From Escherichia coli (GTDB lineage Bacteria > Pseudomonadota > Gammaproteobacteria > Enterobacterales > Enterobacteriaceae), in NCBI RefSeq assembly GCF_003334335.1, contig NZ_QOWQ01000202.1: DNA of 365 nucleotides; one strand, given 5' to 3'. This document shows positions 1 through 365 of the stretch, piece after piece (the first letter of the stretch is position 1; every line of letters begins with the position of its first letter). The notes below the pieces were generated by a model. That model made no database searches and was not told the origin of the DNA. It saw only the letters and a program-made list of their open reading frames with translations. Made by a program: the position numbers and the translations under genes.

Positions 1-365
1 AGTCCCCACACCCCGTATGTCTCCACACCATCAGGCAGGGTACTGACCTGTATCCGGTCCGGCGCGGGGTGTGCGGTAATGTCCACACTCACCGGCTTAC
101 CGCTGCCGTTAATCAGGTTCACCGTCGATGTCCCCGTCTCCGGGAGTGTCACCTCACGGTCCAGCGTCAGGGTGCGGGTGGCAGCATCAATGGACAGGAC
201 ACGTCCGCCGGTCATAGTCCCGGCATAGTCGTTATCACAGATTTCAATGATGTCACCGGGTGTGTGCCGCAGCCCCTGAGACCCGAGCGTGAAATCCACC
301 GTCTGCGTTTCCAGCAGTTCGGTCTTTATCACCCACAGCCCGGCACGGTGGGCCTGACCGCGGCT
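1..365 (-). CDS. J: Internal fragment (partial at both ends) of a lambdoid phage/prophage host-specificity (tail-tip, central tail fibre) protein J homolog. The codon register runs + 365..363 (Ser) down to + 5..3 (Gly), with + 2..1 the first two bases of the next codon.
   Basis: Seen in sequence: the reverse-complement frame is open across all 121 codons. Leu codons are 9 CTG and 2 CTC, with no TTA, TTG, CTT or CTA, which is typical of a highly used enterobacterial/coliphage coding frame. The translation contains motifs I recall from lambda gpJ (SRGQAHRAGLW-IKTELLETQTVDF, GLRH-PGD-IEICD-DYAG, TGGRVL, TRTLTLDRE, DGSG-PVSV, PDGV-Y-VW). Established knowledge: gpJ is the roughly 1,100-aa tail-tip protein of lambda-like siphophages, and this stretch corresponds to its central portion, not the C-terminal receptor-binding region. 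Limits: the match is from memory, not a database search. The complementary strand is also stop-free in the same register (+ 3..365), but it has no in-frame ATG, uses rare Arg codons (AGG, CGA) and gives an Arg-rich translation with no recognisable similarity. Confidence 0.88.

Follow-up and report, generated by a model that had tools for sequence, protein, structure and literature searches.

The 365-nt stretch of DNA analysed here, referred to in its full length as the window, is almost certainly an internal piece of gene J of a lambda-like siphovirus of E. coli (the tip attachment protein, central tail fibre or baseplate hub), carried most probably by a chromosomal prophage and transcribed from the minus strand. 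The identification is based on the observed reading frame, on sequence homology, on where the fragment lies in the protein, on how widely the sequence is distributed and on the gene order in close relatives. The gene, the kind of element and the host are all already known, and nothing beyond the coding sequence needs explaining in the window.

The reverse complement of positions 3-365 (minus-strand frame 1) contains no stop codon across the full 365-nt window and gives 121 complete codons, with window bases 1-2 being the first bases of the following codon. The 121-residue translation, SRGQAHRAGLWVIKTELLETQTVDF...DGVETYGVWG, is the equivalent of lambda J residues 440-560. In the BLASTP alignment with lambda J residues 440-559, 78 of 120 residues were identical (65%) and 103 of 120 positive, without any gap (E 1e-55), and the nucleotide identity to lambda J was about 73% over 286 aligned columns. 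PHROG tail families (tail protein or host specificity, including phrog_31, "central tail fiber J") were matched at E values from 1e-68 to 4e-55, and the lambda gpJ chains 8iyk_J and 9e7m in the PDB at E 2e-50. Model positions 107-162 of the 164 positions of the Pfam domain Phage-tail_3 (PF13550) matched fragment residues 1-59 (E 7.9e-10), the match being partial because the window begins inside the domain. Collinear similarity, the Phage-tail_3 signature and coding constraint on the minus frame, three of the features by which membership of the lambda gpJ family was judged, were thus found. An earlier note, made from the letters of the window, had taken it for an internal fragment of a lambdoid J gene, clearly related to lambda J and not identical to it. 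Both points are borne out by the identities given above and by the position of the fragment at residues 439-559 of a gpJ of about 1,156 residues; the coding strand, which that note did not state, is the minus strand. The best matches were all to phage tail-tip proteins and not to any non-phage family.

The nearest relative was the gpJ of E. coli JE86-ST05 (WP_137486890.1, 1,156 aa, NZ_AP022815.1 1230103-1233573), residues 439-559 of which were 100% identical to the fragment in amino acids, with 364 of 365 nucleotides shared. The sole difference is at window position 339 (GGG versus GGA) and is synonymous. An identity look-up placed the JE86-ST05 protein in 98 blocks of the assembly collection, and all of the seven loci with DNA encoding the identical J protein had A, not G, at position 339. 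G at this position occurs in IMG/VR alleles, which differ from the window at 13-22 other positions; a 120-mer including position 339 matched three IMG/VR contigs, which were 94-96% identical over the whole window. A 185-mer of the window had no match in JGI metagenomes or GTDB representative genomes. On these comparisons, none of which gave an exact copy of the window, it differs from a very common allele by a single synonymous SNP.

The coliphages matched in tblastn fell into two groups, the Stx-converting phages, BP-4795 and vB_EcoS-569R3 at 93-98% identity and the lambda-type phages, mEp460 and cdtI at 62-65%. Phages of other genera (Serratia, Salmonella, Acinetobacter, Ralstonia, Burkholderia and Vibrio) were all below 50% among the 30 matches listed. 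At the nucleotide level, the records of vB_EcoS-569R3, PhiR12_2, Stx1a- and Stx2a-converting phages and BP-4795 were 94-97% identical to the window. Judged from the tblastn groups and the nucleotide matches together, the fragment therefore belongs to the J clade of the long-tailed Stx-converting and BP-4795-type lambdoids of E. coli and not to the lambda clade proper.

The genes surrounding J in the closest relatives are those of a phage tail. In JE86-ST05, the late operon runs through terminase, portal, protease, decoration protein, capsid, FI, head-tail joining and tail tube genes to G/T, tape measure (H), M, L, K (C40 peptidase), I and J, and is followed by an Ail/Lom-family protein, tail-fibre genes and a YadA-like protein. 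The order H-M-L-K-I-J-lom-stf was found in all eight of the 99.7%-identical loci examined and in lambda itself, in agreement with the earlier statement that lom and the side tail fibre genes lie downstream of J in lambda; no locus among these closest relatives had non-tail genes in place of tape measure, M, L, K and I upstream or of lom and tail-fibre genes downstream. The seven loci with the identical protein had the same neighbours and the full Pfam architecture of J, i.e., FNIII-A_GpJ, Phage-tail_3, Ig_J, Ig_J_second, Phage_Tail_Tip and Ig_GpJ_C. The JE86-ST05 element is a lambdoid prophage of about 50 kb, with the integrase adjoining yccA and the other end at a tRNA-Ser and the hya operon. 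Its upstream part comprises integrase, exonuclease, dicB, regulators, replication genes, Q, three tRNAs, a SASA esterase and lysis genes; the integrase, immunity/replication, Q, lysis, head and tail modules are all present, with a few early genes frameshifted.

The JE86 prophage also carries accessory cargo (L001 22225-27391 and L013 22865-27455). Downstream of J and the tail fibres are genes for an outer-membrane protein of the Ail/Lom family and a YadA-like protein of the adhesin family, and hokD and dicB are present as well. Behind Q come three tRNAs (Ile, Arg, Arg) and the genes of a TerB-family protein and a carbohydrate esterase of the SASA family; in Stx phages this slot is occupied by the stx genes. 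Outside the window, the intergenic gap between I and J is about 250 bp in the JE86-ST05 clade (L001 18438-18686), as against about 60 bp in lambda. This gap is AT-rich, and at about 18612-18645 a GC-rich hairpin precedes a run of T residues. It also had a sub-threshold Rfam match to the sRNA STnc100 (RF02076) at 18563-18644 on the plus strand (25 bits against a gathering threshold of 47, E 0.0018). The gap may encode a small RNA of the prophage or act as an internal terminator, or it may be of no significance.

Of the alternatives to an intact J gene in a prophage, the one that survives best is an origin in the remnant of a decayed (cryptic) prophage or in a pseudogene of J. In favour of decay, lambdoid prophages of E. 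coli are in many cases defective, single E. coli genomes were found with as many as 11 J-like copies, and several early-region genes are frameshifted or partial in the JE86 relative. On the other hand, the frame is intact throughout the window, the encoded protein is 100% identical to the corresponding part of an intact 1,156-aa J, the exact JE86 protein recurs in the 98 blocks mentioned above, the only nucleotide difference to JE86 is synonymous, and the late operon is complete in the closest relatives. A decayed source is thus considered unlikely, although the fragment covers 121 of about 1,156 residues and the intactness of the whole gene is beyond its reach.

A source in a free (virion-derived) phage genome, or in a phage-plasmid or other plasmid copy, appears still less probable. 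The region was found in 149 phage records at 90-97% identity, all of them from Escherichia or Enterobacteria phages or Stx1/Stx2-converting phages, and in 19 plasmid records (18 from Escherichia and one from Salmonella), the best of which were 95-97% identical, and 14 of the 6,244 places in complete E. coli genomes are on plasmids; these findings could be taken to support such a source. However, every copy found with at least 99% identity lay in an E. coli chromosome or a long assembly contig. In megablast searches the region was present in 1,892 of 5,426 complete E. coli genomes, in a median of 2 and a maximum of 11 places per genome, with a best match of 99.7% (a level reached in four genomes), and 6,230 of the 6,244 places were chromosomal. 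A chromosomal prophage is therefore the preferred source. The same figures, i.e., the E. coli genomes with near-identical DNA and the 149 records of coliphages and Stx phages, uphold the earlier description of the element as lambdoid and its host as enterobacterial.

The preference for CTG among the leucine codons, which had been offered as a sign of adaptation to an Escherichia- or Salmonella-like host, was counted correctly (9 of 11 codons being CTG and 2 of 11 CTC). As evidence for the host it is weak, because there are just 11 leucine codons and the GC3 of 71% favours CTG anyway; in the whole J gene, CTG accounts for 71 of 88 leucine codons in the nearest relative and 62 of 78 in lambda. 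Codon usage was found consistent with E. coli and was not relied on, and the probable host is assigned from the database matches instead. The GC content of the window is 61.6%, compared with 57% for the whole of J in both lambda and the relative. It is also above that of the late region of the JE86 prophage (56%) and of the neighbouring hya-app chromosome (55%). The left arm of lambdoid phages is GC-rich, and the window is in line with this.

An unusual setting is very improbable, for example the takeover of J by a non-phage element such as a tailocin or satellite, a host genus other than Escherichia, or recombination that has given the allele a new receptor specificity downstream. The window is one SNP away from a very common allele, which offers no pointer to any of these.

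The weakest alternative is a real gene on the plus strand, or an antisense or overlapping gene embedded in J. Two frames of the window are free of stop codons, namely minus-strand frame 1 and plus-strand frame 3 (positions 3-365, 121 codons), and small plus-strand ORFs are present, including a 49-aa ATG ORF at 79-228, so that a case for such a gene could be made. However, the openness of plus-strand frame 3, which is the codon-aligned antisense of J, is forced by the absence of TTA, CTA and TCA codons from the sense strand, and none of 5,000 shuffles of the codon order introduced a stop into the frame. The substitution pattern was compared with three homologues, i.e., two IMG/VR alleles and lambda J. 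In the minus frame, 9 of 13, 18 of 22 and 68 of 120 differences, respectively, were at third positions, and the ratios of synonymous to non-synonymous changed codons were 7/4, 17/4 and 39/43. Read in plus-strand frame 3, the substitutions land on the first codon position and the corresponding ratios were 0/11, 2/19 and 6/76, so nearly all changed codons would be non-synonymous. These patterns indicate that coding constraint is restricted to the minus frame and that purifying selection acts there. All the homology and annotation evidence likewise points to the minus frame, and neither strand of the window had an Rfam match at E<=1. Ruled out by the codon shuffles and the substitution pattern, a plus-strand gene or antisense ORF has next to no chance of being correct. 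The remaining ORFs of the window are out of frame and 22-49 aa long, and its repeats are just two-copy matches of 10-12 nt, which are regarded as chance; the view that the window holds no accessory gene can thus be retained.

Within gpJ, the window falls in the part that in lambda forms the structural hub. The domain limits were transferred from the lambda structure (PMC10721106) through the gap-free alignment, together with the Pfam match. Positions 237-365 (minus strand) encode part of hub domain IV (HDIV), equivalent to lambda residues 440-482, and positions 3-236 (minus strand) encode 78 of the 87 residues of a beta-sandwich inserted in HDIV, equivalent to lambda residues 483-560. In lambda gpJ the beta-sandwich comprises residues 483-569, between beta24 and beta25 of HDIV, and HDIV serves in the baseplate hub as the adaptor by which the tube is extended (PMC10721106); the domain inserted in the HDIV loop is named "OB" in PMC11101478. 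In the full 1,156-aa gpJ, Phage-tail_3 covers residues 331-497, the next Pfam domain, Ig_J, begins at residue 608, and the host-range determinant Ig_GpJ_C lies at residues 1026-1156, far downstream of the part encoded in the window. The window would accordingly contribute to the structural hub and not to the C-terminal receptor-binding or host-range determinant. Where the window departs from three other alleles of its clade, the changes are clustered at positions 126, 128, 129, 131, 132 and 135. This 10-base cluster falls in the beta-sandwich insertion, near the residues ...PETGTST..., and could reflect either a small patch of variability on the protein surface or a short tract of recombination.

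The fold and the mechanical role of this part of the protein would be those described in the lambda structure papers. In the tail tip of lambda, three copies of gpJ are located together with gpL beneath the ring of gpM (PMC10721106, PMC11101478). HDIV extends the tail tube downward, and the remaining gpJ closes the tube and then runs into the central fibre, the C-terminal domain of which binds the outer-membrane receptor. Upon receptor binding the fibre is rearranged and the hub domains swing outward, so that the tube opens and the DNA can exit. In lambda, binding of LamB at the C-terminal receptor-binding domain is followed by twisting of the fibre, flipping of the helical shaft and release of the FNIII domains, after which the hub domains and gpI move outward and the tube is opened (PMC11101478).

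J is among the most thoroughly studied phage genes and ranks with the most frequent ones in E. coli, this allele being present in a large share of the sequenced genomes; the fragment is of little significance in itself. Its practical value lies in annotation, for which [quoted passage not shown] would be appropriate. The window marks the tail module of a lambdoid prophage, which in relatives is followed by cargo encoding lom-type and other surface proteins. Host range should not be inferred from it, since the domain that binds the receptor is encoded about 470 codons further downstream.

Among the known systems, lambda gpJ (NP_040600.1; PDB 8IYK, 8IYL, 8K35, 8XCG, 8XCI and 9E7M) belongs to the same family and aligns with the fragment at the same position of the protein without gaps, the identity within the window being 84% in the HDIV part and 54% in the beta-sandwich insertion. 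The scaffold of hub domains is also shared, at more distant sequence similarity, with baseplate hub proteins of siphophages and tailocins that have a J-like N-terminal hub, among them T5 pb3, the tail fibre of the F2 pyocin (PDB 25vf, matched by the window at E 1e-10) and two further J-like proteins of the tail tip (PDB 9l9p and 23gd, about 1e-6). The hub domains of gpJ superpose on T5 pb3, which is without the beta-sandwich inserted in HDIV (PMC10721106); the part that is absent from T5 pb3 thus makes up two thirds of the window. Over its whole length, the J protein of JE86 (L001 18687-22157) is 24 residues longer than that of lambda, with the gaps concentrated at about residues 798-897, where the identity is 22-32%. 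Its C-terminal receptor-binding region (about residues 998-1156) is 30-54% identical to that of lambda, and this low identity suggests that the receptor of the JE86-type J clade may differ from LamB.
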